A stretch of 64,000 nucleotides of DNA, from positions 67,275 to 131,274 of the IMG/VR virus record IMGVR_UViG_3300024299_000001; one strand, 5' to 3'. The stretch is from a virus. A program made the translations under genes and the position numbers. Below are positions 2,913 through 54,458 of the stretch, piece after piece (positions within the stretch are counted from its first letter, which is position 1; the number at the start of each line of letters is the position of its first letter). The notes under the pieces were generated by a model, which worked only from the letters and a program-made list of their open reading frames with translations, was not told the origin of the DNA and did no database searches.

Positions 2913-2920
2913 AAGACATC

Positions 2921-7543: not shown

Positions 7544-7556
7544 AAGCTCCTACAGT

Positions 7557-7581
7557 AATGGGGGCTAATTAAGCCCCCATT
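7557..7581. other. Perfect 10-bp hairpin (AATGGGGGCT/AGCCCCCATT) between two structural genes, no U-tract
   Basis: Inverted repeat read directly; possible RNA stability or processing element. Confidence 0.3.
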
Positions 7582-7587
7582 AGTTAA

Positions 7588-8622: not shown

Positions 8623-8631
8623 TTATGACTC

Positions 8632-9198
8632 CTAATCTTCTATTCTATTACCCATCGCCTGGCGTTGGGCTAGGTCTTTCAGTTCTTGTGGAGTTAAGGG
8701 ATCTAAAATTTCAATTGCAAATTCTTTAACCAAATGGCCTCTTTTCTGTTTCTGGCCATTGGGTAGTTTAATTTCTTTAAAAGCCTGGTATTTTCGTTCC
8801 TGCACCAATCTTAAAATAGCTGCTGGTACATGATATCCGACTTCAGTATTAAAAGGAACAAACTTTTTAATAGTACCAATAACTCGATTACTGATACTAA
8901 GTATTTCTCCAGGCCAATCTTTTTTGTTTGGATTCATGCATGTTAAATTTATACGAACTAACCGGTTTGCTGTTTTTCTCAACCGGGTATTACTTTCCGC
9001 TTTACGGGTTGCTTCTGATTTCTGTTTAAATCGAGGCTTGGGTTTCTGTACAACCATCTCTTCTACTTCTTCTTCCGAGTTGAGTACTGCATTGAGTTTT
9101 TCTTTCAAAGACTTTACTCCAATTGAAGGATGAAATTTAATACCCATTAGTGTTGCTCTATCTTTTAAAAGACTTAATTCTGTTGCTTGCTTTGCCAT
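8632..9198 (-). CDS. Hypothetical basic protein downstream of the capsid gene
   Basis: 188-aa ORF in the late operon. Confidence 0.3.
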   Translation of the reverse strand: MAKQATELSLLKDRATLMGIKFHPSIGVKSLKEKLNAVLNSEEEVEEMVVQKPKPRFKQKSEATRKAESNTRLRKTANRLVRINLTCMNPNKKDWPGEILSISNRVIGTIKKFVPFNTEVGYHVPAAILRLVQERKYQAFKEIKLPNGQKQKRGHLVKEFAIEILDPLTPQELKDLAQRQAMGNRIED

Positions 9199-9228
9199 TT
9201 GTCCACCTTTATTTGTGTCAGGTTACTG

Positions 9229-9263
9229 TTAAAGAAACTCTTCCCCTAATTAAAGGGGAAGAG
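9229..9263 (-). terminator. Rho-independent terminator after the major capsid gene
   Basis: 10-bp stem CTCTTCCCCT/AGGGGAAGAG with a 6-nt loop, followed on the minus strand by TTTCTTT. Confidence 0.6.
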
Positions 9264-9304
9264 AGTAAATTACATTTTACTCAACACTTAGTGTCAAGTT
9301 GATT

Positions 9305-11104
9305 TTACCACTGTGCAACAGTCCACAACACGGCCAACCGTTCTGGGCGCAAAATCATGGAACCGTAGTACCATTTGATACTCATAAGCCCAGATTCACC
9401 GTAAGGATCCTGCGTGGAAACCATCTCTTTACCTGGTTTCTTATGGAAGATGGTAAACTTGGTGCTTTTACCGCTGGTCTGGAAACCAATAGTAGTAAAT
9501 GAAGCATCACCAACAACAAGCATCGGATACGCATCATAATAACCATCAGTTACACGATAACCAGAGTTAACACCCTCAGCGATACCTACGGAACCGGCAG
9601 CACCGTTATGGTGCATCATCTCAGGAACAACAACAATTCTGAAATGTCCAATGGTACCGATTTCACCATTAATCTCAGAACCAGCAGCCGCATAATGTGC
9701 CAGCGGGATAAATGCCTGGTTACTGAAATGATCAGTCATCTTTTCAATGGTAGGAATCAACTCAGAACCAATATATATAATACGGGCGGAGTTAATAACC
9801 TTTGTATCAACCATTCGGGAACCGGTTATAATCTTGGTGTTCTTAGGACATCTGTTGTTATCAAGATCAATGGAAAGCTTACTTAGATCATCATAATCAA
9901 CTTCAGTCAGGGTAGAAGCAACACCAGACATATCCTCTTTACTTAAAGCATCACCGGCATAACGAATAACACCAGCACCGTTAAGCAGATCAATCTGCAG
10001 AGCATCCTCGGTAATTTCATTGGCACCAAAGAGCATTTCACGGTTAATATGCATGGCCATCTCAGCATCAGTATCAAAGTCCAGAGATTCCTGGGTGTAC
10101 TCATCAAAGAAACCAAATTTCTCAATAGATCCTTCCAGAGTAATACGTTTGAAACCAACACGGTTAACTCTTCCACCAACCTCGGTCAGTGCAGGGAGTT
10201 TACCGGAGATATAACCAACATCTTTACTGGAACCATAAAGATTACCAGCACCATTTACAGAAGTGTTCAGGGTTGTTTCATAACCCAGATCGTAAATAGT
10301 ATTAGCACCTTCTACAGTTTCTGCAACAGACTCAGTACCAGTACCAGCTATTGTACAGGCTACACGACTAGCCTGATAGCCAGCACGATCAAAAGTTGCA
10401 GTAAGAGTTCCACCATTAGTACCGGTACCGGTAGCAAGAGCAAGGGTGAAAGGCATAGCTGCGTAGTTTGCAGCATTTGGGGATGCAATCAAACCAGCCA
10501 GAGCAGCATCAATAGTCTGAACACCAGCCATAGTAAATTCAAGATCTACTCCATCCCAAGTGATAGTAATTACATCATCAGTAGTAAGAGTAACCAGGGT
10601 AATAGTATCAACCTGAATTGCTTCACCGGTAGCTGCCTGAATGGCATAATCGGCTGCAACAGAAGCATGGGCCATGGTTGCATACTGATCAGGAAATTGT
10701 GATTGGATCCAGGCAACAAAAGCTGTCTTTGCAGCAGTAATAGCTGTTGCATCAACTGATGCATGGTTACCAACAAAATATTCTTTCATTCCTGCGCCAA
10801 GGGTACCTTCACCGTCCGGACCTGCAACAGTAATGGTAGATTCAAAAGTCGTTGTTGCACCAGCAGCATCCAATCCCTGATCATTGATATTCGCATCATC
10901 AAGTAAAGGCATGTAATGGTACCGTTTAATTGTTTTACCCATGTGTTTGGGCATGGCCGTTACATCAGCCAACTGGGAAAAGTACTGTTCTTTTTTCAGC
11001 TCAATAAGAGCTTTTTTCTGATAATACTCAGTTACTAGCTGAGTACCTATATCAGACGCCGCTCCGCCTGTTACAAAGCCTCGTCCACCGTCAGGTAGTG
11101 CCAT
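9305..11104 (-). CDS. Major capsid protein (N4 gp56-like) with a large Ala/Thr/Gly-rich internal insertion
   Basis: 599 aa. Sits between the portal/scaffold-like genes and a strong terminator. The N-terminal and C-terminal thirds (..FGFFDEYTQESLDFDTDAEMAMHINREMLFGANE..) resemble N4-like capsid proteins as I recall them. Confidence 0.75.
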   Translation of the reverse strand: MALPDGGRGFVTGGAASDIGTQLVTEYYQKKALIELKKEQYFSQLADVTAMPKHMGKTIKRYHYMPLLDDANINDQGLDAAGATTTFESTITVAGPDGEGTLGAGMKEYFVGNHASVDATAITAAKTAFVAWIQSQFPDQYATMAHASVAADYAIQAATGEAIQVDTITLVTLTTDDVITITWDGVDLEFTMAGVQTIDAALAGLIASPNAANYAAMPFTLALATGTGTNGGTLTATFDRAGYQASRVACTIAGTGTESVAETVEGANTIYDLGYETTLNTSVNGAGNLYGSSKDVGYISGKLPALTEVGGRVNRVGFKRITLEGSIEKFGFFDEYTQESLDFDTDAEMAMHINREMLFGANEITEDALQIDLLNGAGVIRYAGDALSKEDMSGVASTLTEVDYDDLSKLSIDLDNNRCPKNTKIITGSRMVDTKVINSARIIYIGSELIPTIEKMTDHFSNQAFIPLAHYAAAGSEINGEIGTIGHFRIVVVPEMMHHNGAAGSVGIAEGVNSGYRVTDGYYDAYPMLVVGDASFTTIGFQTSGKSTKFTIFHKKPGKEMVSTQDPYGESGLMSIKWYYGSMILRPERLAVLWTVAQW

Positions 11105-11127
11105 TTTATATTTCCTTGTTTAATAGA

Positions 11128-12369
11128 TTATTTTACTTTAAAATCATTAGGGTCAATTTTAGCAAAATCATCATCAGACATGGATAAAGGATTATACGAT
11201 ACGACTGCTGGAGTACCTTTACTCTTAGTAGGGCTAGCAGCCTTCTTGCGTTCTTTCCGTTTTTCCTCTGCTTTAGAATCGATTTTAGTTGGAGCAATAA
11301 CTGGTTCAGGTTTAGTTTCTGTTACAGGAGATGTTTCCTCCTTTTTAAACTGCCCTGCTTCGTATAGCTGATCACCCATTTGTTTATACGCATGAATATC
11401 AGATATCCCAGTTAAATTCCCCATGCTGCGTTCATACTCTACGGCTTTCATGACTTTATCATAGGTCCCATCGGCAACGTGCTCATTGATTGTTTTAATA
11501 ATTTGAGGTGAGTTGGCAATGATGTTACGACTGTCTTGATCCCATACATTCGTTATTACATTCAGAGTATCCTGATAGGTGGGCGTACTATGAATATCTT
11601 CAAGTACAGCGTCTAAATCAAGTTCTGATTCATTAACAGTATGTTGGGTCGGAGTATATTTACTGTCATCTTTAACATTTACATCCAAAGGATCCATACC
11701 ACTGTCTTTAACCAGTTTAGTAATTGCCTCTGGATTTTTGTTGTGTAGATCAATTAAAAAGTTAAGATCATTCTCTTCCATCAGGCCATTCTTTTCGAGT
11801 AACTTAAGAATGCGCATTGAAGGTTTAAGACCGGCCATCTTCTTATGATAATTGGCTCCCATCTGCATAAGACGGATAGCATCATCAGTATTCTTTACAG
11901 CCATGTCATAACCATTTGCTTTAAATGGAGCAGTGATCTTTTCATACTCAGCTTTATAATCAATCCCCGCTTTATCAGACTTTACTTCTTTGTCTTCTTT
12001 TTTATCTGTTTTAATTTTTTTATCCGAATCCGCCTCAAGGTCAGTTTCAACCTCCTCTTTTTTCTTTTCTGGTTCTGGCTTCTTCAAATCTTTATCTTCT
12101 TCTGAGAAAACTTTACTGGCTTCTTCAGCTGCAAGCTCTTCAGCCTTTTTATTAGCAGCTGCATCAGCTTCTTCCTGGGCTTTTGCTTCAGCTTCTGCAT
12201 CTTCCTCAGCTTTTTTAACTGCATCAGGATCAACCTCTTCTTCCGGCTCTTCCTCAACAATTTTTTCTGTAAGTTCTGGAGGACCCTCTAATTTAGCAAA
12301 GTCTTCATCAGACAATTCCAGTGCCTCAATCGGTGCTTCTTCCATTTTTGTTTCTTCGGCAACAGCCAT
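11128..12369 (-). CDS. Acidic, Glu/Lys-rich protein in the scaffold position
   Basis: 413 aa with a low-complexity EEE/KKK N-terminal half, located between portal and capsid. Confidence 0.4.
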   Translation of the reverse strand: MAVAEETKMEEAPIEALELSDEDFAKLEGPPELTEKIVEEEPEEEVDPDAVKKAEEDAEAEAKAQEEADAAANKKAEELAAEEASKVFSEEDKDLKKPEPEKKKEEVETDLEADSDKKIKTDKKEDKEVKSDKAGIDYKAEYEKITAPFKANGYDMAVKNTDDAIRLMQMGANYHKKMAGLKPSMRILKLLEKNGLMEENDLNFLIDLHNKNPEAITKLVKDSGMDPLDVNVKDDSKYTPTQHTVNESELDLDAVLEDIHSTPTYQDTLNVITNVWDQDSRNIIANSPQIIKTINEHVADGTYDKVMKAVEYERSMGNLTGISDIHAYKQMGDQLYEAGQFKKEETSPVTETKPEPVIAPTKIDSKAEEKRKERKKAASPTKSKGTPAVVSYNPLSMSDDDFAKIDPNDFKVK

Positions 12370-12372
12370 GGG

Positions 12373-12705
12373 TTACCCCTCTTCGGCTAGGATATTCTCT
12401 AGCTCTTGTTCTGCACTAAATAGTGCTTCTCTTGCAGTAACACCAGTCTGTCTCACATTAGCCAAAAATTGCTGTAAACCAGCAACACCCGTAAGCTGAC
12501 ACTGAGCATGAGCCTGAACCTTTGGTTCCTGGGCCTGCAAACTAGCAGTAAACGTCAGCATACCCAGAGCAAAGTCCCTTAAATAAGTCTCAGTAAATAA
12601 CTTTTTAAAGTGTTTGTTTTTCTCCAGGAAAATCAATGCATCAGCCAGTTCTACTTTGTCCCGTTCTGCTCTAATGTTTAACTCAATCTTTTCTAAATTT
12701 GTCAT
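12373..12705 (-). CDS. Hypothetical head-module protein
   Basis: 110-aa ORF between the portal and the scaffold-like gene. Confidence 0.3.
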   Translation of the reverse strand: MTNLEKIELNIRAERDKVELADALIFLEKNKHFKKLFTETYLRDFALGMLTFTASLQAQEPKVQAHAQCQLTGVAGLQQFLANVRQTGVTAREALFSAEQELENILAEEG

Positions 12706-12784
12706 AGTTTTATTCCTCTTTGTGTCCTCCTGCGATATGCTGCAGTGAGCTATTATAGGTTATACCTGAGTATAAATATACTGG

Positions 12785-14956
12785 TCAGGCAGTAGCTTTT
12801 TCTGGTTTAACGGTATCGGATATTATTTTAGTAGTCAAATCATTTTGTGCTTTTACATCTAACTTTTCCAACTCTCGGGCTTGATTTACTCCGGATTCTT
12901 GTTCTAAGTAACTTAAATCTTTATTATCAGCATCACTGGAGATATCTCTTGTTTTAGCGCCCTCAGTACCTGCTTTTGCCTCATTAAGTCTACCCTGAGT
13001 AATCTCACGGTAGCCCTTCTCACCGTTCAGTTCCGCTTCAGCAGCATGCTTGGTTGCCAATGCTTCTTCTTTAGCAATCTGAGCTTTAAGTAGATATATT
13101 TCTAATTCTCTCTTTGCTTCTTCAATTGGATCAGGTTTGGGCTCATACTCTTCAATCTTTTTAGCCATACCAGGCATCTTTCTTAAAGTAGCAATATCAG
13201 CAAGAATCATATTCCTTAAATCAGGGTCCATATTATTACCGGTAGTCTGAAGCATGAAAGCTAATTCCTCTGCTTTCTTATTATCAGCTTCAGCAGTACT
13301 TATGCTTAACTCAAGATCAAAATGACCAGCAAGATCATCTCTACGGATCGGAATGAATCTTTCATTGGTTACTCTAATAATTTCTTCTTCAGATAAGAAT
13401 TCAGCATTCATACTGATCATCTTACGACCAATCTGGATTATACCTAATGCAAGGCGCCTAAGTATACCAAATTCACGTTTACTAGCTGCATCTAAGGCAT
13501 CCCTACCACCTCCGACACTATCGCCTAATGCGCGGCTATTTATACCCGAATGGAAGGCCTTCACACCGGTAAGACTCTCAGCATCAGCATTCTGCATAGC
13601 AATCATATTGGGGGCTGAAGCAGGTATTTCCGGAAAGGAGTGCATATATACTGCTTGACGGGGATCCATTACCTGATTAAATACATAATCCTCACCCCTA
13701 TCAAATTTACGTTTATTAGTAAAATCAAGGAAACCTTGTTGCATGCCAGTCTGACTATTAGCTGATCGACCCAAAAGATCAATCATACCACGAGTGGTAG
13801 CACCAATAATCTGTTGATTCTCAATCAGTAATTCACCATCAGGTTGACCATAAAGGGATTTACGTACTGGCAAATACACTGCTTTAACAAAGGGATGTTC
13901 TTTATCCGGGAAAGGGTTCTCTTCCATACGGATCTTACGATCATTAACCCAAGCAGCAACAATGGGTACTACTGTACCATCACCATGGATATCCCAGTCA
14001 CCCCAGTACTGTTGCACGGTAAACTGCTTACGGGGTTCATCAGTAAAATTAAAAGAATCATTATCAGGTGTCTCTTCATAATCCGGATCAGTTAAAGGAG
14101 AAGAGGCTTCTTTATTTATATGCTTTAAATTATGATACTTACCGTCTTTCTTTAAACCGGCTACTGAAGCTTTAAAAGTCTCACCAATAAAACCTGCCTT
14201 ACGAATATCACCACCACAGGACGGATCCATAACAAGATTTTTATGCTCCATCACTTCAAGAACTGGTTGATTCTTTGTTTCCTTCATTACTTTCTCAATA
14301 CGAACACCAATTTGATTGGGTGTAACCGCCTGGCCAGTTGTAGCAAATATTTGTAATGTTTGATCCATCCCGGGATTGCTGTATTCTTCGTACACATCCC
14401 GGTTATCTTTCTTAAGTTGCAATAGCTGAATGTATTTAGGAATAGTTTGCTGCAGTACTTCCGGATCAGTAATAGGAATAAATTCGTATTCAGGAATCTC
14501 TTCCTCAACTTCCTCTTCTTCTGAATCCCAGCCTACTTTAACAATGACAGTACCTAGATCAACAGCATCCCGGATATAGGCATCAATAAAATTTACTTTA
14601 TCTATCTTAGTATTAAACTGATTATTCAGTACCAGAGCATTTTGTTTAGCCCGGTCTCGGTCACCAGCAGTAATTGGATTTACATTAAAAATATCTGAAG
14701 TACTTAAGAATGGTTCAGATAAAGAAGAGTACCGCCATTCAGCCTGCTTCCGGATAACCTTGGGCACAACAGAAGATCTACCTTTTGCAGTGGTAATCTT
14801 AGCAGCTCCAGTAATATTTAAATTCTCTAACCAGGTATCAACATTATTGATATGCTTATCATAGTCCGACCGGGCATCATCTAAATTTTGTTTCAAATCA
14901 GCGATAGATGGCTCATTAGCCCAATCAGTAAGTTTTGTTTTAGCTGTATCTTCCAT
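12785..14956 (-). CDS. Portal protein (N4 gp59-like)
   Basis: 723 aa. Size, position relative to terminase and capsid, and a charged helical C-terminus. Confidence 0.65.
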   Translation of the reverse strand: MEDTAKTKLTDWANEPSIADLKQNLDDARSDYDKHINNVDTWLENLNITGAAKITTAKGRSSVVPKVIRKQAEWRYSSLSEPFLSTSDIFNVNPITAGDRDRAKQNALVLNNQFNTKIDKVNFIDAYIRDAVDLGTVIVKVGWDSEEEEVEEEIPEYEFIPITDPEVLQQTIPKYIQLLQLKKDNRDVYEEYSNPGMDQTLQIFATTGQAVTPNQIGVRIEKVMKETKNQPVLEVMEHKNLVMDPSCGGDIRKAGFIGETFKASVAGLKKDGKYHNLKHINKEASSPLTDPDYEETPDNDSFNFTDEPRKQFTVQQYWGDWDIHGDGTVVPIVAAWVNDRKIRMEENPFPDKEHPFVKAVYLPVRKSLYGQPDGELLIENQQIIGATTRGMIDLLGRSANSQTGMQQGFLDFTNKRKFDRGEDYVFNQVMDPRQAVYMHSFPEIPASAPNMIAMQNADAESLTGVKAFHSGINSRALGDSVGGGRDALDAASKREFGILRRLALGIIQIGRKMISMNAEFLSEEEIIRVTNERFIPIRRDDLAGHFDLELSISTAEADNKKAEELAFMLQTTGNNMDPDLRNMILADIATLRKMPGMAKKIEEYEPKPDPIEEAKRELEIYLLKAQIAKEEALATKHAAEAELNGEKGYREITQGRLNEAKAGTEGAKTRDISSDADNKDLSYLEQESGVNQARELEKLDVKAQNDLTTKIISDTVKPEKATA

Positions 14957-14983
14957 GTGATATATCCTATTTAAATATGTTTA

Positions 14984-15454
14984 CTATTCTTTTGGAAATC
15001 TATTTTTAGCTGAACGACAAACAGCATCATATGCTTTAAGTTGCTCTTTACTTTTTTTTCTTTCTTTTGGGTCATCACTACGCAATTTAAACTGTATATC
15101 TAAATAATCATTTGAATCCGGGTATAACCACTTACGGAAAGTTGTATAGTATTTCTTTTTAAAAGCAACAGGTTCTTCACCTAAATTAATAATTGCTTTA
15201 TTAAAATTATCTTCTGAATCTACATATTGTTTTAAACTGAACAAATTAGTAACAGGAAATTCTGGATAAGGTATTGTGGGCTCTGTAACAACTAAAGTTT
15301 CAGGATTAATTATACAAGTTTCTTCATACCTTTGATCACATAAAATTTCTGTGACTGGATCAAAATTAAGTTTAGCTTGATGAAGCGAACAACCTAAGTA
15401 TTTTACAACTTTACCTGTTACTTTATTAAAAACTGTATATTCATTATTTTGCAT
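14984..15454 (-). CDS. Hypothetical protein
   Basis: 156-aa ORF in the late operon. Confidence 0.3.
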   Translation of the reverse strand: MQNNEYTVFNKVTGKVVKYLGCSLHQAKLNFDPVTEILCDQRYEETCIINPETLVVTEPTIPYPEFPVTNLFSLKQYVDSEDNFNKAIINLGEEPVAFKKKYYTTFRKWLYPDSNDYLDIQFKLRSDDPKERKKSKEQLKAYDAVCRSAKNRFPKE

Positions 15455-15459
15455 AATTC

Positions 15460-17628
15460 CTACTTATATGAAATCATTACTATAATACAAGGATAGCCTG
15501 TTGCGCCACCTAAAGTACCCTGTACTTTAAAAGAATATGAACCGGCTGCTACTGTTGACCAAGTTCTGCCACCAGAGTACATTCCTCCCTCACCACCAGC
15601 AGACCATATGAGTGTTGTACCTGCATAAAAATTAACAGTACAAGTAGTATACCCTACCATAGAAAACTGTACGGATATGTTTGCAGTAGAATGTGTAGAA
15701 AAATTATGAGTTAAAGTGTAATCAGTAGAAAGTCCACTATCTCCAGTAATCTCTGTTGCGGCATTAGCGTCAAGTTTACCAGTATTAACAGCTAGATCTT
15801 GGATATTACCAGTAGCAATAATATCACCGGTAACAGTTAAAGTAGAGCCATTCCAAAGAATACTTTTGGAGGAATTACCAAAAGCTAATTTATAGGTCCC
15901 ACCATCATAGCCCATCCAAAAACCAGCAGTTGGATCAGCATGCGAAGTTTTACCCCCTCTAAGGCTTCCAGTGGTTCCAACATTCAGTAAACCAGTATTA
16001 ACAGAAAGAGCGGCTAAATTAGATACATTTATTTGGTTTGCAGTAATAGAATTAGTATAAATCTTTCCGCCATCAATAAAGGTTTGTCCTGGATATTTCC
16101 AGAGTACCGTTGAATTGTAGCCAAGTACCCCATTTGCAGCATCAGCAAGAACTGCAGCACCGCCATTTAATTCCCCAACAGTTATTGCTCCAGTATTTAT
16201 TAAACTTGTTTGAATTTTAGTTCCTGAAATAATAGTGCCATCTAGGTTGCTAAAACCAACAGAAGATAAATAAGCCATAGCAGCTAAACTTAAAGCTGAC
16301 TTAACAGATGCAGGATCTGCACCAATTGAACCAACAATTAAAGTTGTGGGGATATTTACATAAGTAGAATTTAAACTAATAACATCACCAGCTACTGAAA
16401 ATACAGGATCAGCCGAAGTACTGGTTAACACTTTAAAAGTGTCAGCGTTAACAATAAATTCTGATTTAGTATCATCTGGTTGAGCTGTCCAATAAGCCGG
16501 GTCTACACCAGGAGCATTGCCTGCAGCAGACGTATGAGCTAAAATACAAAGATAAACTACATTACCATAAACAACTTTAACGTCTAATGGGTAGTCTTCG
16601 CCACTGAGCCAAATAGGATTAAGTAATAACTGAAAACCGGTTGCATAAGATTTACCATTACCATCTTCAACAATGTTTACTGCAAATTGATTAGCCAATA
16701 AAGTTTGGGTGGCCTCTAAAGAATATTTTGTTGCACCAAGTTTCGTGCTGTTGACTTGGGAAAGAATTTGATTAGCTGAAATTGTAGTTTCTGCAATATT
16801 TACTCGACCTGTAACACTATCAGTTGCAATTACTTGTAGATCAATAAGATCTCCTTGAATAGTAAGAGTAGCTGTATTTACATCTGCTTTTCCATTTACT
16901 AATATTCGCGCTTCAGACTCTAATATCAATCCAGCAGCATTAATACCAATAGAAGAAGTAAGTGTTTCAATATCTCCACCAGGGCCATTAATAGCCAATA
17001 CATCTGTAGCAACTAAATCAATATCATCCGCTGTTTGGTTTATTAATGTAGTATGGGCTGAAAGAGAGCCGTTAACAGATGTTTCCAGGTCAGTAACACT
17101 CTGACTAATCTGAATAGCAGTTAGCTCAATGCTAGCAGCTCTTGCATTTAATTTACCAGCAGTATCTGCTTTAATATCTACCGCTGAAAGGGCTATCTTC
17201 GCATCTGTTGCAATAACTGAAGTCGCAATTAAAGAATTACCGGCACCTAAAGTTAACAGAACATCTGCACCAACACTAACCCATAAATCTGCCAATTTAG
17301 TTAAATCAGAAGCAAGACTAGCTGCCATCTGTGTAGAGGTTAATTGACCGGCCAACATTGCTATAACTGTTGCTGTATCATACTTATTACCAACACCCGT
17401 ATTAATCACAACCACTGGCTTCTCATCACCAAGAACAGTAACCGGTGTTGCGCCGGTAACAGTAATTTGAGGGATTACATTGCCTATAACTGTGACTTGA
17501 GAGGTAGAATTATCTGTAACAGTTATTGCAGCAATAGAACTATCAGTAATAGTTACAGTAGGTTGATTATCAGTTACTGTAACGGTTATCACTGTAGGGA
17601 CTACATTTACAACAGCCATATCGCTCAT
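15460..17628 (-). CDS. Tail fibre / tail appendage protein
   Basis: 722 aa. N-terminus has (V/I)TVTD-type beta-repeats, the middle is Ser/Thr/Ala/Ile-rich, and the C-terminus is a Gly/Thr-rich globular end. Confidence 0.45.
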   Translation of the reverse strand: MSDMAVVNVVPTVITVTVTDNQPTVTITDSSIAAITVTDNSTSQVTVIGNVIPQITVTGATPVTVLGDEKPVVVINTGVGNKYDTATVIAMLAGQLTSTQMAASLASDLTKLADLWVSVGADVLLTLGAGNSLIATSVIATDAKIALSAVDIKADTAGKLNARAASIELTAIQISQSVTDLETSVNGSLSAHTTLINQTADDIDLVATDVLAINGPGGDIETLTSSIGINAAGLILESEARILVNGKADVNTATLTIQGDLIDLQVIATDSVTGRVNIAETTISANQILSQVNSTKLGATKYSLEATQTLLANQFAVNIVEDGNGKSYATGFQLLLNPIWLSGEDYPLDVKVVYGNVVYLCILAHTSAAGNAPGVDPAYWTAQPDDTKSEFIVNADTFKVLTSTSADPVFSVAGDVISLNSTYVNIPTTLIVGSIGADPASVKSALSLAAMAYLSSVGFSNLDGTIISGTKIQTSLINTGAITVGELNGGAAVLADAANGVLGYNSTVLWKYPGQTFIDGGKIYTNSITANQINVSNLAALSVNTGLLNVGTTGSLRGGKTSHADPTAGFWMGYDGGTYKLAFGNSSKSILWNGSTLTVTGDIIATGNIQDLAVNTGKLDANAATEITGDSGLSTDYTLTHNFSTHSTANISVQFSMVGYTTCTVNFYAGTTLIWSAGGEGGMYSGGRTWSTVAAGSYSFKVQGTLGGATGYPCIIVMISYK

Positions 17629-32931: not shown

Positions 32932-33116
32932 ATGGGTATGAAGATAAACAGTAAAGAGGCGGTTAAATTTATAATTGCTGCCATGAAAGCAAATCTTGTT
33001 ACCATGATATCTGGTTCCCCAGGTATTGGTAAAAGCGCTATTGTACAACAAATTGCTGATCAATATAATCTTGAACTAATTGATGTAAGATTAAGTCAGT
33101 GTGATCCAACAGACCT
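32932..33116 (+). CDS. AAA+ (MoxR/AAA_5-type) ATPase, exon 1 (N4 gp24-like)
   Basis: Walker A GSPGIGKS. The frame is broken after ..RLSQCDPTDL and resumes at 34000. Confidence 0.75.
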
Positions 33117-33999
33117 TAAGTTACAAAGGGCTTCATAAGAGCAATCTTATGTCGAAAACTATCTAAACGGTGAAACACCTTGACTAATGGAAACCCTTAA
33201 CATACAGTGGGGTAACTATTAATTTTAAAGCGAGGTCAATACCGTGCTAAATACTAATAACATTACAGAAATTTGGGTACCGATTAAAAATTTTGAAAAA
33301 AGATATGAGGTATCTAATTTAGGAAGAATACGCTCTATTCAAGATAATCATCATAATTATCGTATTAAAATAATAACAGGTTTCATAAGATCAAAAACTT
33401 GTCAATATTTATATGTACAATTATGGCGAAAAGATAAACCAACAACAAAAGCAGTTCATCGATTAGTAGCACAAGCATTTAAACCAAATCCTTATAATAA
33501 ACCAATGGTTAATCATAAAGATGGTATTAAAATAAATAATATTGAAACAAATATTGAGTGGGCTACTAATTCAGAAAATGTTAAACATGCTTTTACAACT
33601 GGGCTACAGGATAGAGAAAAATGTGTAAAGCGAATGATTGGAACTAAATTTAACACCAGATCCAAATACAAAAATGTATCTTGGGATAACTCCAGAAAAA
33701 AATGGATTGGTGGTGTTAAACACAAAGGAAAAGTTATTAAAAATAAACGTTTTAATAGCGAAATAGAGGCAGCTTTACATGTTAACTGGATTATAGATAC
33801 TTATAATTTAGACCGTCCAAAAAATGTTATTAGTTAAATTGCGTAACGACCATCCCGCAAGGGAGTACACTCAAGTGAGTGGAAACGGTAGTCGTCCTGC
33901 TTATAATAGTAGGATGTTGATATGGTCTATTCTGCATGGTAACATGCAGCAGTTCAGAAGAGAACGGGTAAAGATTAACGAACTTTATCGAATATTAAG
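33117..33999 (+). mobile_element. Group I intron carrying an HNH homing endonuclease gene
   Basis: Joining 33116 (U) to 34000 (which follows intron-terminal G 33999) restores DPTDL-L-GFPF and a 344-aa ATPase. The 3' core (AGTACACTCAAGTGAGTGGAAACGGT, TAACGAAC) is homologous to the intron at 52916. Boundaries +/- a few nt. Confidence 0.6.
33244..33837 (+). CDS. HNH homing endonuclease (NUMOD4 + I-HmuI-like HNH_3)
   Basis: EIWVPIKNFEKRYEVSNLGRIRS, AVHRLVAQAF.PNP..KPMVNHKDGIKINN..NIEWATNSEN; GTG start after GAGGT. Confidence 0.8.
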   Translation: MLNTNNITEIWVPIKNFEKRYEVSNLGRIRSIQDNHHNYRIKIITGFIRSKTCQYLYVQLWRKDKPTTKAVHRLVAQAFKPNPYNKPMVNHKDGIKINNIETNIEWATNSENVKHAFTTGLQDREKCVKRMIGTKFNTRSKYKNVSWDNSRKKWIGGVKHKGKVIKNKRFNSEIEAALHVNWIIDTYNLDRPKNVIS

Positions 34000-34849
34000 T
34001 TTGGGCTTTCCTTTCATTAGTGAAGATCGGAAGAAAGCTTCCTATGTGCCCATGGATATATTTCCATTAGAAAATACTCCAATACCTGAAGGCAAAGTAG
34101 GTTTTCTTTTATTCCTGGATGAGATCAATGCATCCTCATTAGCAGTGCAGGCAGCGAGTTACAAGCTGATACTGGATGAGAAGGTAGGACAGCATCACTT
34201 ACATCCAATGACCAAGATGGTGGCTGCTGGTAACCTTGCTACGGATAAGGCCATTGTGAACCGACAAAGCACTGCAATGCAGTCCAGACTGGTTCATCTT
34301 GAACTGGTAACAGATCCGGAACTATGGCAGGAGTGGGCAGCTAAAGAAGGTATTGATCATCGTATCATTGCTTATATCAACAGTAAGCCAGATGATCTTT
34401 ATAATTTTAACCCAGAGCATAATGACCATACATTTGCTTGTCCTCGTACCTGGGATTTCCTTTCAAAGATTATTGGTAGCATTGAAACTAAACAATTGCA
34501 TACATATTTACCTTTGATTGCTGGTACTGTTAGTGAAGCCATTGCTCGATCATTTGTAATGTTTACTAAAATCTACACCAATATGCCTGATTTCCAAGAA
34601 ATAATGGCCAGACCAGGATTAGCTCGTTTGGACAATGATCCCTCTTTTAGATTTGGTGTATCCCATATGATTGCTGCTTACACTAAAACAAATAATATTT
34701 CTACTTTAATGACATACATTGAACGCTTACCACTTGAGTTTCAAACAATTACCCTTCAGAATATTATGCGTAGAGATCCAGAAATGATCAAAGAAGATTG
34801 TGTTAAGAGGTGGATCTCAGTTAAAGGTCAACAATTGTTTAAGGAGTGA
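34000..34849 (+). CDS. AAA+ ATPase, exon 2
   Basis: Walker B LLFLDEINA and sensor AAGN. The track ORF 33824..34849 includes an intron-derived N-terminus. Confidence 0.75.
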
Positions 34850-36030: not shown

Positions 36031-36900
36031 ATGTCAGAATTAAACGTAAACACAGCCAATATAGCATACATGAATTATTTAATTAGAACCTATCAGGCAG
36101 TTACAAAAGTGATTGCATCCACTAAGAACAGGCTCCAAAGTCTTCCTGGTGACCATCCAGTAAAATTTGATAATATTCTACATGGAGAAGACAATGGGAA
36201 AAATAAAGAAGTTGGTCTTATAACTATCAAAGGGCGTATTGCCCGAATGGTAGGTAATGAACTAATTCATTGGGATATATGGAATTTATGGTTAAAAGAT
36301 ATCCCAGGTATTGGTCCTGTTACTGCGGCTGAACTAATTATGCTGTACTACTATAGGTTCATACCTGTCTGCTCTAAATGTAAGACCGACATTGAAAAGA
36401 TAAACGATACTTACTGGTGCAGTAAATGTGAGAAATCTCTTAAAGGTGATGGCCTTTTAAATTACCGAACTGAAGAAAAAGATTTTGCAAATATCTCTAA
36501 ATGGTGGGCTTACATGGGTCGTGATATTAGAGATGGTGCCATGAGAAAAAAGAAAAAGGGTGAGCAAATGAACTGGTCAGCAGCAGGTAGGAAGTTAGGC
36601 TTCCTCATCGGTGAATGCTTCAACAAACAACAACCAGATCATTTGTATAAAAAAGTATGGTTGGAAGAGAGAGCCAAATACCATAAGGTACCAGAAAAGA
36701 CTCGCTGGACAACAGGCCATATTTATAATGCATCAAAAAATAATACTGTTAAATTGTTTCTGGCTCACTTCTGGACAGTAGCCAGGACTCTTAGTGGTAA
36801 AGATGTAACACTGCCATATGCCATGACAATCATGGGACATACAGGATATGTAGCACCATTTTACTTTGATCCCAAGGTTGCTAAAGAAATAGCAGCATAA
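36031..36900 (+). CDS. HhH + Zn-ribbon DNA-binding protein resembling the C-terminal (Transposase_20-like) domain of IS110-family proteins; no DEDD nuclease domain
   Basis: IPGIGPVTAAELI (HhH), inserted CSKC..x15..CSKC, then WWAYMGRDIRDGAMRKKKKGEQMNWSAAGRKLGFLIGECF. Confidence 0.4.
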   Translation: MSELNVNTANIAYMNYLIRTYQAVTKVIASTKNRLQSLPGDHPVKFDNILHGEDNGKNKEVGLITIKGRIARMVGNELIHWDIWNLWLKDIPGIGPVTAAELIMLYYYRFIPVCSKCKTDIEKINDTYWCSKCEKSLKGDGLLNYRTEEKDFANISKWWAYMGRDIRDGAMRKKKKGEQMNWSAAGRKLGFLIGECFNKQQPDHLYKKVWLEERAKYHKVPEKTRWTTGHIYNASKNNTVKLFLAHFWTVARTLSGKDVTLPYAMTIMGHTGYVAPFYFDPKVAKEIAA

Positions 36901-36922
36901 AATATTAAAGCTACTAACACAT

Positions 36923-37282
36923 TGAAATCTAGGCAAATTATGCGAGTCATAATTGGTTTGAAACCTGTTGTTAAAATACAAACTACTCCGGCTATGAAAC
37001 CTATACTGAGATTGTGAGTTAGAAATATGCTGAAATCTATCTGTGCTGTGCGAGTTACAGGATGATTGAAACCTATTATGTTCATGCGAGTTACGATTGA
37101 CTTGAAATCTACTACCAATATACGAGTTAAAGGAAAAATAAAATCTAAGGATTAAATACGAGTTACCATGCAATTGAAGTCTATGAACAAACTACGAGCC
37201 AAAAATATTCTGAAGTCTAAAATGCGGGTGCGAGCTACTATATGCATGAAATACATAAAGAGTTTGCGTAACATTAATTTTA
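36923..37282. repeat. Ten tandem 36-bp units, each TGAAAYCTA-N10-T-RCGAGTTAC-N8
   Basis: Unit starts at 36923, 36959, 36995, 37031, 37067, 37103, 37139, 37175, 37211 and 37247, exactly 36 bp apart. Confidence 0.9.
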
Positions 37283-37298
37283 AAGGAGAATTCATAAA

Positions 37299-37904
37299 AT
37301 GAAAAAGAAAAATCTAAAACAGAAATATGAAAAAAAGACTATTGCACAGATTGAGAAATCAATTAAACTGAACTTTGAAAAGTCCATGGGTCTTAAATTA
37401 GAAGCAATGTTAGGCTTATATTTCCTAAAAACATCCAAAAGGTATAAAGAAAATCCTCTATATAAAAAGAGCAGCTTTAAGGTTTACCTTGAGAGCGTTT
37501 ACAATATGAGAGAAGGTACATTTGATGATAGTATAAGAGCAGCCTTAAGATTTCCTGATGAAGCCACTAAATATGGAATCGGTCTTGTAGCCAAAGTTTT
37601 TAGAGATTGTGGTTTTAAAAAAGAAAAAATAGTTTTTAAAGAGATTGCTATTAAAGCCAAACAGCTTAAGACTCCAATCAAACGAGGGCAGATTGACACC
37701 ATTATTAAAAAATATGCCAAACCATTACCACCGGCCAAACCTGCATATAAAGAATTATATGTCACTGAAAAAGCTGCTCATGATAATCTGATTGCCCAAT
37801 ACAACGATCTCATGACAGCTTACAAGTCTGCCCAGGAACAAATTAAGTTTTTAAAAAAATCAATAGCTAAGTGCCATAATCTATTAGGCGAGGATGCAGC
37901 ATAG
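37299..37904 (+). CDS. Basic, Lys-rich protein with C-terminal coiled coil (possible DNA-binding)
   Basis: 201-aa ORF immediately after the repeat array. Confidence 0.3.
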   Translation: MKKKNLKQKYEKKTIAQIEKSIKLNFEKSMGLKLEAMLGLYFLKTSKRYKENPLYKKSSFKVYLESVYNMREGTFDDSIRAALRFPDEATKYGIGLVAKVFRDCGFKKEKIVFKEIAIKAKQLKTPIKRGQIDTIIKKYAKPLPPAKPAYKELYVTEKAAHDNLIAQYNDLMTAYKSAQEQIKFLKKSIAKCHNLLGEDAA

Positions 37905-37917
37905 TAAATACAGCAGT

Positions 37918-38009
37918 TTAGCAGGGCACTCCATCGGGGAGAGAGTATATTTTTTAAACGAATGAAATTAACATATCTTTAGTTTTTACTCATGCCCTGC
38001 TAATTTTTT
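37918..38009 (+). terminator. Terminator-like 11-bp stem (TTAGCAGGGCA/TGCCCTGCTAA) enclosing a 64-nt loop, followed by T6
   Basis: Read directly. Confidence 0.4.
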
Positions 38010-38129
38010 AAATAAACAGTTTAGTTAACATATTAACAGAATGGTCTGTTAACTCACAGGTGGAGTCGAGAAGTTAACCGGTATACGGGAGCCGTTCCAC
38101 TACCCGTCTGATAAAATAAGGAGTAACCA

Positions 38130-38240
38130 ATGCCCAATATAACATTGACCCAAGACCAAGATAATGCTCTTAACTCTTTTCTTGATTTTCTTAATCAACC
38201 AAAAGAGAAATACATGATAATCCAAGGAGCTGCTGGATGT
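38130..38240 (+). CDS. Dda/RecD-like SF1 helicase, exon 1 (37 codons; below track cutoff)
   Basis: MPNITLTQDQDNALNSFLDFLNQPKEKYMIIQGAAGC. It ends inside the Walker A motif; SD AAGGAG. Confidence 0.75.
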
Positions 38241-39220
38241 TAACTTATAGCATCCTTTGAGGAGCAATCCTCTCAAAATAAATTCCGTGAATTGCTGGAA
38301 ACTCTTAGCACGTAATGGTGAAGACAATCAGCAGCCAAGCTTAGGAAGGAATTCCTTTGAAGGTTCAACGATCAGGATATACTGCCCAGAACGGGGAATG
38401 AAATCCATAGAGATCAAGTGATCTCGAAGTGCGGAACTCTATATAACAAATAATTCATTGATTTTCCTAAAATTAAAGAGTAAACCTTATGTAAGGTTTA
38501 AACGTATAAATAAAGGAAAATATCATGCAAGAACAGATTCGAGACATTAAAGGCTATGAAGGTAGATATCAAGTTACTAACACAGGTAAAATTTTTTCTT
38601 TACCTAATGGTAGCAGAAAAGGAATAAGAGAATTAAAACAAGAAATAAGCAAACGAAAATGTACTTCTTACAGAAGAATTACATTAAGTGTAAACGCCAA
38701 ACCAAAACGTTATCAAGTACATCAGTTAATGGCTATTGCTTTTATTCCCAATCCTGATAATAAACCTTTTATTAATCATATTGATAATAATGGTGAAAAT
38801 AATTTTATAGATCCCAATGACTTATATGGCCCTAATACAAATATCGAATGGTGTACTCATAAAGAAAATATGAAACATTCGTTTAATCAAGGCCGACAAG
38901 ACTTGGTAAAAAAATTAGGCGGTAAAGCTACTGCTACAATTAAAAAAATTAAAACTATAAAAAAATTAAAATCTTTATTAAATAATAGATTAATCACTAC
39001 CAGTATTTATAGTACACATTCAGGTACTCGTAGAAAAGTCACATATCAATGTAAATATTGTAATAATGTTTTTAGTAGAAGATCTGATTCACCCGCCGTA
39101 TTACGTGGTGGTGTATGTACAGATTGTTATAGAGATGATGATATGATCTAGACTGCATAGAAATATGTAGAAGTTCATTGACGAACTGATGTAAATTAAC
39201 GCCTTACATTGAATGTTTCG
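38241..39220 (+). mobile_element. Group I intron carrying an HNH homing endonuclease gene, inserted inside the helicase Walker A motif
   Basis: The exon end GGATGU pairs with intron GCAUCC 9 nt downstream, giving a 6-bp P1 with terminal U.G. The intron ends in G. Splicing gives GAAGC-GKSTL. The motifs AATTGCTGGAAAC and CAATCAGCAGC are shared with the intron at 52916. Confidence 0.75.
38525..39151 (+). CDS. HNH homing endonuclease (I-HmuI-like)
   Basis: IKGYEGRYQVTNTGKIFS, VHQLMAIAFIPNP.NKPFINHIDNNGENN...NIEWCTHKEN, and a C-terminal CxxC..CxxC. Confidence 0.8.
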   Translation: MQEQIRDIKGYEGRYQVTNTGKIFSLPNGSRKGIRELKQEISKRKCTSYRRITLSVNAKPKRYQVHQLMAIAFIPNPDNKPFINHIDNNGENNFIDPNDLYGPNTNIEWCTHKENMKHSFNQGRQDLVKKLGGKATATIKKIKTIKKLKSLLNNRLITTSIYSTHSGTRRKVTYQCKYCNNVFSRRSDSPAVLRGGVCTDCYRDDDMI

Positions 39221-40381
39221 GGTAAGAGTACCCTTATTAAATATCTGATGAGAGCACTGGAAGCTCAATATAAAATGTATGCACTCCTGCTGCAGACCAA
39301 TAAAAAACAAAGTAAATTTGAAGTAAGGGTTTCAGCAACAACCAACCAGGCAGTCTCAGTACTTGAAGAATTAACGAACTGTGATGCAACTACTATCCAT
39401 TCTCTTCTTGGTTTAAAAGTTGTTAATAATATTAAAACTGGTAAAACTGAACTTGAACGTAAAAAAGATTATGCCCCTCTTTATAATAAATTATTTATAA
39501 TTGATGAAGCCAGCATGATTGATGATAACTTATTAAAAGAAATTGATGCTACAGCTAAAAACTCTAAAATAGTTTTAATTGGAGATGAATGGCAACTTGC
39601 TCCAGTAGGACAAAAGATTGCAACCATGTCCACTCTTAATTTCAGAAAAGTTAAAATGAATAAGATTTTAAGAAATAGTGGTGCCATCATGCAGACGGGT
39701 GCACAATTCCGAGAGACAGCTGAAACAGGCATCTTTAAACCAATTAAACAAGATCCCACTGTTGCCCATGTTACTGGATCCAAGTTTCAAAGATTAGTAG
39801 ATGCCGCTTTCATGGATCCAAATTATGTAACCAATTCAATTAAAGTACTGGCTTGGACCAATGCCAGAGTACAGGCCTACAATGCTCATATCCGTCAAAT
39901 CAACGGGTACGCCAAATTACTACAAGCTGGAGAATATGCAATTACTAATAATGCCCTTAATGAAAGAGGTTATTTTTATAAAACAGATAGTTTTGTTAAA
40001 ATTACTGATGCAAGCAGTGAACGAGAAAGATTAGGAGTACGCGGACGCAATATTGAAATCAATGGCAAATTAATTGGTTTCATGGCAAATGATCCTCATG
40101 ATGTTAAATTACTTTTAAAATCATTAGCTGCACAGAAAGAATGGACTGATTATTTCAGTGTTAAAGAGACTTGGTTTGACCTCCGACCAGCATATGCCAG
40201 TACAGTGCATAAAGCCCAAGGTAGGTCCTACAATACTGTATTTATTGACCTGGCAGATATAAGTAAATGCAGGGTTGCATCAGACGTTGCGAGAATGCTA
40301 TATGTTGCCATCAGTCGCAGTAAACATCAGGTCTATTTATACGGCCAATTACCCCCTAAATATGGAGGTTACAAACCATAA
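39221..40381 (+). CDS. Dda/RecD-like SF1 helicase, exon 2
   Basis: GKSTLIKYL, Walker B LFIIDEASMI, motif VI STVHKAQGRSYNTVFIDL. Confidence 0.8.
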   Translation, partial: GKSTLIKYLMRALEAQYKMYALLLQTNKKQSKFEVRVSATTNQAVSVLEELTNCDATTIHSLLGLKVVNNIKTGKTELERKKDYAPLYNKLFIIDEASMIDDNLLKEIDATAKNSKIVLIGDEWQLAPVGQKIATMSTLNFRKVKMNKILRNSGAIMQTGAQFRETAETGIFKPIKQDPTVAHVTGSKFQRLVDAAFMDPNYVTNSIKVLAWTNARVQAYNAHIRQINGYAKLLQAGEYAITNNALNERGYFYKTDSFVKITDASSERERLGVRGRNIEINGKLIGFMANDPHDVKLLLKSLAAQKEWTDYFSVKETWFDLRPAYASTVHKAQGRSYNTVFIDLADISKCRVASDVARMLYVAISRSKHQVYLYGQLPPKYGGYKP

Positions 40382-52798: not shown

Positions 52799-52915
52799 GT
52801 GGTCGATCAAAATGATAATCTTGTATTAATTGTTGGTTCAAGTGGTGGTGGTAAATCAGCATCATTACGGGATATTAAAGATCCCCAAAATGTATATTAC
52901 TTCAATTGTGAAGCT
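52799..52915 (+). CDS. AAA_24/RecA-like ATPase, exon 1 (39 codons; below track cutoff; N4 gp44 position)
   Basis: GTG start 5 nt after AAGGAGG; VVDQNDNLVLIVGSSGGGKSASLRDIKDPQNVYYFNCEA (Walker A). Confidence 0.7.
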
Positions 52916-53843
52916 AAATAATTGGCTTCGTTAAACCCATTGAATTGCTGGAAACCCCAAACAAATAATGTTGTGGGCAATCAGCAGCGAAGACTTAACG
53001 TGTCTTGACAGAGCAGTTTAAATATGGTACTTTGAACAACTTCTCAATTAAATAAAGGAGAAATTGTATGAAAGAATACATAGAAGAAACTGAAACTGGA
53101 ATTTACAGAATAACCGAAAGAGGTAAGATCTTTTCCCAAAGTAAGCTTAAAATACCTATTGTGGGAAAAGGTATGCAACATACAGGAAAATTCCACATGA
53201 TAACAAAACCTGAAAGGGAACTAACATATACTCTCAATAATAGAGGGTATTTATCAGTAGGAATTATGAAAAAAACTTTTATGGTGCATAGATTAATCGC
53301 TAAAGTATTTGTAATTAATCCGTGTAATAAGCCTCAAGTGAACCATATTGATGGTAACAAACTAAATAATTGCGCTTTAAACTTGGAATGGTGTACAGCC
53401 CAAGAAAATATCCAACATGCTTATAGAATTGGTATAAATAAAGGATGTCTTGGGCTAAAACGCATATATAGTAGTGCCCAAATTAAAGCTAAATGTCTTG
53501 CAAATTTAAAGAATAAATCTAAACTGACTCCTGATGAAGTCAAATATGTTAGAAAAGTATATATTGCAAGAGATAAAAATTTTAGTTGTACTGCATTAGC
53601 TACACAATTTAATGTTAGTATCGCCGCCATGAGTAAAATTGTAAAAAGACAGTCCTATCAACACATTAAGTAACGTTCAACGACTATCGAAAGCATCTTA
53701 TATAAGATAAGCAAGTAGAGTACACCCAAGTGGGTGGAAGCGGTGGGACGTAGAAATACGTATGATATAGTCTACTCTCATATGAAAGTATGAGCAGAGT
53801 TAAAAGCTCGATATTAGCGTAACGAACTAATATGAATATAAGG
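52916..53843 (+). mobile_element. Group I intron carrying an HNH homing endonuclease gene
   Basis: The exon end GAAGCU pairs with intron GGCUUC 8 nt downstream, giving a 6-bp P1 with terminal U.G. The intron ends in G. Splicing gives NCEA-NKKLPF. Shares 5' core motifs with the intron at 38241 and 3' core motifs with the intron at 33117. Confidence 0.75.
53068..53673 (+). CDS. HNH homing endonuclease (I-HmuI-like) with C-terminal HTH
   Basis: GIYRITERGKIFS, VHRLIAKVFVINP.NKPQVNHIDGNKLNN..NLEWCTAQEN. Confidence 0.8.
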   Translation: MKEYIEETETGIYRITERGKIFSQSKLKIPIVGKGMQHTGKFHMITKPERELTYTLNNRGYLSVGIMKKTFMVHRLIAKVFVINPCNKPQVNHIDGNKLNNCALNLEWCTAQENIQHAYRIGINKGCLGLKRIYSSAQIKAKCLANLKNKSKLTPDEVKYVRKVYIARDKNFSCTALATQFNVSIAAMSKIVKRQSYQHIK

Positions 53844-54458
53844 AATAAAAAATTACCATTTCCAGCTAAATTTCAACAGTTTAATATTACCAATCCTTAC
53901 CAGGTTCATGAGGGATTAGTACATGCTGAATCCAAACCTGATATTCATACTATTGTAATTGATAGTTTAACCTTTTTAATGGATATGTGTGAGTTACAGT
54001 TTATTCTGGATGACCGGATAACTGATACAATGAAAGGATGGGCCGAATACCAAAAATTCTTTAAAAAACTTATGCAGGAACATGTTGCAAAGTCTACAAA
54101 GAATATCATATTCACAGCCCATGTTCAGTCAATCCTTAATGAGACAGATATGGTTCTTGAGAAAAAGGTACCTATTAAGGGTGCTTTAAAAGCAAATGGT
54201 GTTGAGGCTTATTTCAGTACTATTGTGAGCGCACGAACCATAACGGTAAATAAACTGACAAACTTTAAGAATCCACTACTTACTGTTACACCTGAAGAAG
54301 AAACTTTAGGATTTAAGTATGTATACCAAACCCAATTAACCAAAGAAACGGTCAATGAAAGGATCCGTGCCAGTATGGGTATGTGGACCCAACAAGAAAC
54401 TTTCATTGATAACAATGCACAATTTTTAATGGATCGATTACATAAATACTATGTGTAA
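53844..54458 (+). CDS. AAA_24/RecA-like ATPase, exon 2
   Basis: Walker B IVIDSLTFLMD. The track ORF 53832..54458 starts 12 nt inside the intron. Confidence 0.7.
   Translation, partial: NKKLPFPAKFQQFNITNPYQVHEGLVHAESKPDIHTIVIDSLTFLMDMCELQFILDDRITDTMKGWAEYQKFFKKLMQEHVAKSTKNIIFTAHVQSILNETDMVLEKKVPIKGALKANGVEAYFSTIVSARTITVNKLTNFKNPLLTVTPEEETLGFKYVYQTQLTKETVNERIRASMGMWTQQETFIDNNAQFLMDRLHKYYV

Follow-up and report, generated by a model that had tools for sequence, protein, structure and literature searches.

The 64,000-nucleotide (nt) stretch of viral DNA analysed in this study, positions 67,275 to 131,274 of IMG/VR record IMGVR_UViG_3300024299_000001 and called the window throughout, carries a 980-nt insert (38241..39220) within the Walker A coding sequence of a Dda/RecD-like helicase gene of the N4 gp37 type. 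Judged from its sequence, the insert is very probably a splicing-competent group I intron with splice junctions after U38240 and after G39220, and its architecture assigns it to an IA2-like subgroup. Partial matches to the Rfam group I model, covariation among relatives and the exact absence of the insert from intron-less alleles all point to this identity. The initial annotation of this DNA had proposed a group I intron with the same splice sites, and the proposal is supported by the evidence from both the junction and the ribozyme. The host is an uncultured marine N4-like (Schitoviridae-type) phage. When the locus was compared by megablast with 50,697 phage records nothing matched, and the phage has no close cultured relative at the DNA level. 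All features of the locus described below lie on the plus strand.

Helicase exon 1 (38130..38240) is preceded by an AAGGAG ribosome-binding site and consists of 37 codons ending in ..IIQGAAGC, with its last base, U38240, as the 5' splice-site U. It reads directly into an in-frame UAA stop (TAA at 38241-43), which is the first codon of the intron. Exon 2 (39221..40381) begins with GGT AAG AGT (GKSTLIKYL..), as indicated by homologue alignment and by the intron-less alleles, and runs to the stop at 40381. The 111 + 1161 nt of exon sequence stay in frame, and these exon limits and the preserved frame had all been read correctly in the initial annotation. The ligated product of 423 amino acids (aa) shows AAA_30, AAA_19 and UvrD_C_2 domains in Pfam and aligns in one piece, at 97-99% coverage and 35-37% identity, with Dda-like, gp37-type helicases of N4-like phages (Schitoviridae). 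Uninterrupted metagenomic helicase homologues (53-72% identity) read IIQGAAGCGKSTLI across the junction, and the ligated product reads the same without a gap. The helicase is presumably an essential gene.

The junction is also seen directly in natural alleles. A protein that clusters with the exon-2 fragment, P0241, is identical to the predicted ligated product at 423/423 residues, and its gene runs unbroken on 21 contigs (ENA, JGI and Logan assemblies), where its gene context is that of the window. The DNA of these intron-less contigs, such as L220 with the gene at 10001-11272, follows that of the window as far as 38240 and takes it up at 39221, differing at 0-2 positions over 1272 nt, with flanks that are about 99.8% identical, and the IMG/VR contig L180 is likewise intron-less with the same DNA break. 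Because neither end of the insert repeats the adjoining exon base, the insert is exactly 38241-39220. Its terminal base, G39220, is the omega-G at the 3' splice site, which had been recognized from the letters and whose position is now fixed independently by the intron-less alleles. The intron-plus allele is found on at least 24 contigs, from samples such as ERZ27250236 and JGI 3300024243; two of them, read across the locus, do not differ from the window. Both alleles occur in the same sequencing projects. Since the intron-less DNA breaks exactly at 38240/39221, the population is polymorphic for a precisely delimited 980-bp element.

Within the insert, the elements of a group I ribozyme can be followed from end to end around a homing-endonuclease open reading frame (ORF; 38525..39151). 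A focused Rfam search of 1.25 kb matches Intron_gpI (RF00028) at 38235-38399, from P1 to P7, with 43.3 bits (E=2e-9), and gives a weak second match after the ORF at 38997-39170 (19.5 bits). P1 (38235..38255) pairs the last six exon nucleotides, GGAUGU (38235-40), with an internal guide, GCAUCC (38250-55), that begins 9 nt inside the insert, so that the last pair, U38240.G38250, is a U.G pair. This 6-bp helix had been pointed out before and proves correct: the guide changes together with the exon in four other complete copies of the element (GGAACU/GGUUCC, GGUUCU/GGAACC, GGAAUU/GAUUCC), and 3/6 pairs are compensatory across copies. A 6-bp P1 might by itself be due to chance, but co-change of exon and guide in four copies exceeds what chance would give. 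The 5' strand of a candidate P10, CUUAU (38244..38248), could pair with GUAAG of exon 2 (39222-26), as far as the letters indicate. P2 is a hairpin, GAGGA-GCAA-UCCUC (38259..38272), recovered by both folding and the alignment of six copies described below. P3 joins UUCCGUG (38283..38289) to UGCGGAA (38430..38436), with 6/7 pairs compensatory in 135 relatives. The next domain (38292..38334) consists of P4 (38292-98/38328-34) around P5 (38303-06/38321-24) and P5a (38309-11/38318-20), again with covariation, and is followed by P6/P6a (38338..38365) in a register unlike that of the same-site relatives. The 5' strand of P7 (38368..38374), the guanosine-binding helix that forms the pseudoknot, is A, a bulged C and GAUCA; it pairs beyond the ORF with UGAUCU (39144-49). 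P7.1 (38375-78/38403-06 plus an inner stem) and P7.2 (38410-15/38420-25, with an AAGU loop) fill 38375..38425, and both covary. P8 pairs UCUAUAUAACAA (38438..38449) with UUGUUAUAGAGA (39124..39135), strands that lie about 680 nt apart and flank the ORF, the latter still within it; 11/12 positions pair, and 5/11 counted pairs are compensatory across copies. J8/7, UGAUGAUA (39136-43), leads into the 3' strand of P7 (together 39136..39149), and the 3' domain (39153..39209) contains P9 (39153-59/39164-70, GAAA loop), P9.1 (39173-76/39183-86) and P9.2 (39189-94/39204-09), the last with 6/6 pairs compensatory. An unconstrained minimum-energy fold of the ORF-deleted intron gives P1, P2, P3 with its partner at 38430-36, P4-P6, P7.1, P7.2, P8, P9 and P9.1. 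The presence of P7.1 and P7.2 between P7 and the 3' strand of P3 (P3'), linked by G-U-A, is a hallmark of IA2 introns (PMC3428280).

Two registers were discarded in arriving at this structure. Rfam places P3' at about 38390-99, with 5+2 pairs and one G.G, while 38430-36 gives seven contiguous pairs; we prefer the latter because it leaves room for P7.1 and P7.2, is recovered by the fold and covaries. For P8, a first register, CUCUAUA/UAUAGAG with a bulge, was dropped in favour of the one homologous to the relatives. The initial annotation had also listed two core motifs, AAUUGCUGGAAAC and CAAUCAGCAGC, as common to this intron and to another at 52916. Both inserts do have them, but no special tie follows, as they are generic P4 and P4' strands with more than 120 exact matches in viral contigs, a very common phage intron core. 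The sharing shows membership in a class and not a particular kinship between the two introns.

Covariation was evaluated in two alignments. A covariance model of P3 to P3', built from the window sequence alone, gave 135 phage-intron matches in the viral loci fetched. In their alignment 94.2% of cells are paired, as compared with 31-47% when partners are slid by 1-3 columns, and 38/44 pairs show compensatory changes. The second alignment comprises six copies of the same-lineage introns with the ORF deleted, for which the structure has 75 pairs in 13 helices. Here 96.7% of cells are paired and 30/75 pairs have changed on both sides, including pairs in P1, P7 and the ORF-spanning P8; slid controls reach 42-48% paired and 3-10 doubly changed pairs, with the caveat for this control that the six-copy structure derives from the aligned sequences themselves. 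Compensatory changes occur in P1, P2, P3, P5, P6, P7, P7.2, P8, P9 and P9.2. The change in P7 is a perfect double compensation, from GACUA/UAGUC in the family majority (n=79) to GAUCA/UGAUC in the window intron. All copies also have an in-frame stop within 0-2 codons of the start of the intron.

These results bear on the possibility that the locus is a helicase gene in pieces, in which a free-standing endonuclease cassette has split it into a 37-aa peptide and a product that starts inside exon 2, the two being made separately without RNA splicing. The split ribonucleotide reductase of Aeromonas phage Aeh1 provides a precedent, gene callers do report three ORFs (37 aa, 208 aa and the 377-aa exon-2 product P0001), exon 1 does end in a stop, and an ATG/TTG occurs early in exon 2. 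The sequences on either side of the endonuclease ORF, however, make up a full group I core, in which covariation is extensive and the guide tracks the exon. Moreover, a P-loop divided between two polypeptides as GAAGC and GKS would be unlikely to bind ATP, and neither a ribosome-binding site nor any sign of selection was seen for a start in exon 2. We consider such an arrangement very unlikely.

Several observations weigh against the interpretation of the insert as a functional group I intron with these junctions. The RF00028 score of 43.3 bits falls below the Rfam curated cut-off of 50, and Rfam scans of the whole window, at the gathering threshold and at E<=0.01, gave no match. The low score probably arises because the 627-nt ORF in P8 splits the model, and the whole-window scans would miss the intron for that reason; scores of 64.7-99.4 bits, above the cut-off, are reached by those relatives of this core that are nearest to it and have no ORF. 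The linker of P7.1 and P7.2 is GUA in five relatives and AUA in the window copy, P8 of the window copy holds one A.G mismatch, the register of the 5-bp P10 is not conserved among relatives, and the P5 extension of the same-site relatives is absent from the window copy. Both pair counts depend on an alignment fitted to its model or on a structure derived from the aligned sequences, which inflates the percentages of paired cells but not the count of compensatory pairs. As for the intron-less contigs, they could in principle have arisen by precise loss instead of representing an unoccupied target.

Some of these features, namely the sub-threshold score, the P8 mismatch and the missing P5 extension, together with the apparent mosaic of two intron lineages in the window copy, would also suit a decayed intron that has lost splicing and inactivated the helicase, leaving a genome that is defective or needs a helicase from a helper or the host. 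Such decay is highly improbable in our opinion. The occurrence of the intron-plus allele on at least 24 contigs from several data sets argues for a viable and abundant genotype; the core helices, the G-binding pair of P7, the U.G pair and the omega-G are all intact; and the divergent central part has about 83% identity with introns whose Rfam scores are 93-97 bits. That mis-assembly of a mixed sample placed the 980-bp insert into the helicase gene can be practically dismissed, even though the two alleles come from the same projects and the gene lies close to the end of several contigs, since the identical insertion recurs in independent ENA, JGI and Logan assemblies, homologous insertions occupy the same codon in four other phages and the guide is complementary to this very exon.

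Other classes of intervening sequence were rejected as well. A group II intron is not supported, as there is no Rfam group II match and the ORF encodes an HNH/NUMOD4 protein, not a reverse transcriptase. An intein is not compatible with TAA as the first intron codon and with an endonuclease ORF that has its own frame and its own start. A scan of 37900-39300 for promoters and terminators gave nothing better than shuffled sequence.

For a spliced group I intron at this site, the class suggests the following course of events. The primary transcript would fold into the ribozyme, with P1-P10 and the P3/P7 pseudoknot, and an external guanosine would attack after U38240. The freed exon 1 would then attack after G39220, joining TGT to GGT, so that the ligated exons read ..GGATGT + GGTAAGAGT.. 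and the Walker A loop GAAGCGKS is restored in the 423-aa helicase. The stop at the first intron codon may keep ribosomes off the ribozyme. The endonuclease encoded in the P8 loop, an I-HmuI-like HNH enzyme, would cut intron-less alleles, and repair would copy the intron in. Catalysis, the nicking site and the route of homing are in each case inferred by analogy with known members of the class.

The endonuclease ORF (38525..39151) encodes 208 aa and, by family, is an I-HmuI-like HNH homing endonuclease. Pfam finds NUMOD4 at its N-terminus (E=1.2e-7), and residues 6-129 align with I-HmuI of Bacillus phage SPO1 (PDB 1U3E, E=2.2e-15), including the catalytic His and Asn; this is the sole solved structure matched at a meaningful E-value. 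The window ORF gives no reported HNH_3 match in Pfam at E<=0.01, and among about 15 homologues at 50-63% identity many carry a precomputed HNH_3. The C-terminus bears a CxxC..CxxC arrangement. The ORF is intact in all copies, and we consider it likely that the endonuclease is currently active in homing. The initial annotation had located this ORF near the 3' end of the intron; the ORF exists as described, and its location is more exactly the P8 loop, extending through the 3' strand of P7 (P7'). Its last nine or so codons (..C Y R D D D M I stop) encode the 3' strand of P8 (P8'), J8/7 and P7', and the last base of P7 also belongs to the stop codon. The same RNA elements (P8', J8/7 and P7') are read in a different frame in three relatives. 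Overlap of ORFs with core elements is known in phage IA2 introns (PMC3428280). A hairpin, AAACCUUAUGUAAGGUUU (38482..38499), lies about 25 nt upstream of the ORF start and is conserved and covarying in all family members, for example as GAACCUUACACAAGGUUC in L215. It may control expression of the ORF or may be an element of RNA processing or stability.

The distribution of the element among phages fits a mobile intron. Four relatives (L146, L215, L217 and L219) carry it at the same codon of N4-like helicases, with introns of 974-983 nt, ORFs that are 58-63% identical to that of the window and ribozymes that are 65-72% identical over the whole alignment and up to about 77% in the best-aligned segments. 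In the comparison with L146, the ribozyme is 71% identical in the six-copy alignment and 75-77% in pairwise alignments of its two halves, whereas the helicase proteins are about 41% identical and the exons 62% at the DNA level. The intron is thus more conserved than its host gene in this comparison, a pattern that horizontal spread to a conserved site would predict and with which it fits without being proof of it. The earlier suggestion that insertion at the most conserved codons reflects a homing strategy gains support from the natural presence/absence polymorphism and from these same-site homologues in divergent phages. A search with the P9-P9.1 sequence returned one same-site relative only, the remaining matches being other introns.

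Further polymorphisms were seen around the helicase gene. The segment at 38012-38112, upstream of the gene, is replaced in L220 and L222 by 175 nt with a 57-aa ORF, and L221 lacks the 289-aa and 201-aa ORFs that occupy 36144-37823 of the window, as a comparison of L220-L222 shows. These upstream differences are independent of the intron, because L180 is intron-less yet has the window-type upstream segment. In L146, helicase exon 2 changes frame near its 3' end (ORF 2477-3568, then 3459-3719; the change lies at about 3459-3568), which could be a sequencing error, a frameshift or another interruption.

Another finding from this study is that the element's close relatives are found in the same protein motif of unrelated genes. 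The closest ORF relatives (44-63% identity), not counting the window copy, lie inside Walker A coding sequence in 7/7 contexts examined. Four of the seven are the helicases mentioned above, to which the window copy adds a fifth helicase case. Two others, in L216 (1097-2070; ..LHGHPGI/GKSDLI..) and L227 (2209-3146; ..GSPGI/GKSAMI..), occupy the equivalent position in the gp24-like MoxR AAA ATPase of N4-like phages. Once ligated, the L216 product aligns in one piece with ATPases of Vibrio N4-like phages, and the junction in L227, as placed from the protein, ends P1 in U-A and not in U.G. The last, in L228 (2222-3218), interrupts a PIN-PhoH gene exactly one codon further on (..ALAGSG/KTITAL..); its ligated product matches Pfam PhoH across the junction (E=1e-36), and AGSGKT lines up gap-free with the PhoH structure 3B85. 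The L216 ribozyme is 80% identical to those of L146 and L215, as close as these two are to each other, and the window copy is less close to any of them. Since the L216 ribozyme nests within the helicase copies, the element has moved between unrelated genes. What the targets share is the DNA that a G-x-G-K motif dictates: GG at -6/-5, T at -1, GG at +1/+2 and AA at +4/+5. From these sequences we lean, by a small margin, towards the view that the lineage is a Walker A specialist whose endonuclease would recognise DNA encoding GxxGxGK[S/T] (..GGN NNT / GGN AAR..) and which hops among unrelated P-loop NTPase genes; recognition of the motif-encoding DNA by the enzyme is itself deduced from the insertion sites. 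Inteins likewise prefer P-loops (PMC4760082). In the open-access literature we found neither a phage helicase nor a P-loop described as the site of a group I intron, nor any report of a P-loop preference in such introns, which is weak evidence of absence. If Walker A targeting is real, it would mean that a group I lineage can settle in unrelated genes by way of a protein motif that is universal, which would explain the colonisation of new genes and offer nicking enzymes with a predictable, motif-encoded target. The Walker A site in the window phage's own gp24-like gene (around 33022, TCCCCAGGTATT/GGTAAAAGC) is unoccupied.

The window copy itself does not resemble its lineage evenly along its length. 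The end from P2 to J2/3 (23-24/27 nt) and the 3' domain (58/72 nt against L146) go with the Walker A lineage. P3-P6, on the other hand, is identical to introns of L097 at 69/83 positions and of L012 at 67/83 and shares only the invariant 17-nt P4 with the same-site relatives, and the segment from P7 to P3' is likewise nearer to L097. Overall, the centre from P3 to P7.2 (38283-38436) is about 83% identical to L097 7079-7324 (minus strand) and to L012 4471-4736 and 5490-5735. The L097 and L012 introns lie in a gene with a MuF domain and a T7-like RNA-polymerase-like part, directly after a DASSSGAQ motif, and L012 has two such introns 1 kb apart. Among the 120 loci with the P4/P5 motif that were compared, none encodes this helicase, and the closest cores are those in the RNA-polymerase-like gene. 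This pattern suggests that the window intron is a natural chimera, with its P1-P2 end, its P8-P9.2 end and the ORF from the Walker A lineage and its centre from other introns; breakpoints would be expected where conserved sequence marks the J2/3-P3 and P3'-P8 boundaries. Bryk and Belfort reportedly described, in 1990, recombination between phage introns via conserved core sequences in T4.

Among known systems, the introns in phage DNA polymerase genes (I-HmuI of SPO1, I-HmuII of SP82, I-BasI of Bastille and I-PfoP3I of Pf-WMP3) are alike in having the IA2 P7.1/P7.2 and an endonuclease of the HNH family. The Pf-WMP3 intron also has an ORF that overlaps the ribozyme core, and these polymerase introns, like the window intron, occupy a conserved position within a replication gene across divergent phages (PMC3428280). 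The window intron differs from them in its location, the Walker A motif of an SF1 helicase in a marine N4-like podovirus, and its predicted endonuclease differs from theirs in the additional C-terminal CxxC..CxxC. The T4 td intron (IA2, I-TevI) is similar in its architecture, its early stop and its presence/absence polymorphism among related phages, but its ORF is located in P6a, and the encoded GIY-YIG enzyme makes double-strand breaks, as opposed to an HNH ORF in P8. The AAGU loop of P7.2, followed by GAAR and then P3', also resembles the td sequence. The P-loop inteins (DnaB site b, MCM site a, RFC-S site a and others) show the same site preference as the window lineage, but they splice as protein and in frame, whereas the window element has a stop in frame and would be spliced out as RNA.

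N4-like phages are known from earlier work to contain group I introns with HNH ORFs. The N4-like phage pVa5 has one in its td gene (PMC5746245). In the cultured N4-like Pseudoalteromonas phage pYD6-A (L226, JF974296.1 15595-17480) the gp24-like ATPase is annotated as a two-piece join, with the embedded ORF labelled 'ATPase', and the insertion follows ATPase residue ~212, a third intron site in the gp24-like gene family. The pVa5 and pYD6-A introns are in other genes and at other sites than the window intron, neither in a helicase nor in a Walker A motif. Specialists should note the helicase Walker A site, the cleanness of the natural polymorphism and the way in which the relatives are distributed at the level of a motif. 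The coexistence of intron-plus and intron-minus genomes also provides a natural system for the study of homing or of intron-mediated competition between co-infecting phages.

The window contains two further group I introns. The second, at 52916-53834 (exons 52799-52915 and 53835-54458), is IA2-like with an HNH_3 ORF (53068-53673) in P6, and interrupts the gene of a Sak4-like AAA_24 annealing protein some 20 codons past its Walker A; the ligated 246-aa product matches N4-like Vibrio phages in one piece at 99% coverage. The third, with tentative bounds of about 33117-33999 (exons 32932-33116 and 34000-34849), has a NUMOD4/HNH ORF (33244-33837) and lies in the gp24-like MoxR AAA ATPase after ..DPTDL, with a partial Rfam match at 33743-33949 (E=1.7e-6). 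As annotated by gene callers, the helicase falls into three pieces, namely an ORF of 37 aa, one labelled 'HNH' and a truncated fragment of 377 aa labelled 'exonuclease V', and the Sak4-like and gp24-like genes are broken likewise. Once the introns are taken into account, all three replication genes are intact again.

The virion RNA polymerase that N4-like phages encode measures about 3500 aa. Nowhere in the window does an ORF exceed 740 aa, and on its minus strand, at 5327-17628, three ORFs of about 720 aa and several others are arranged head to tail.

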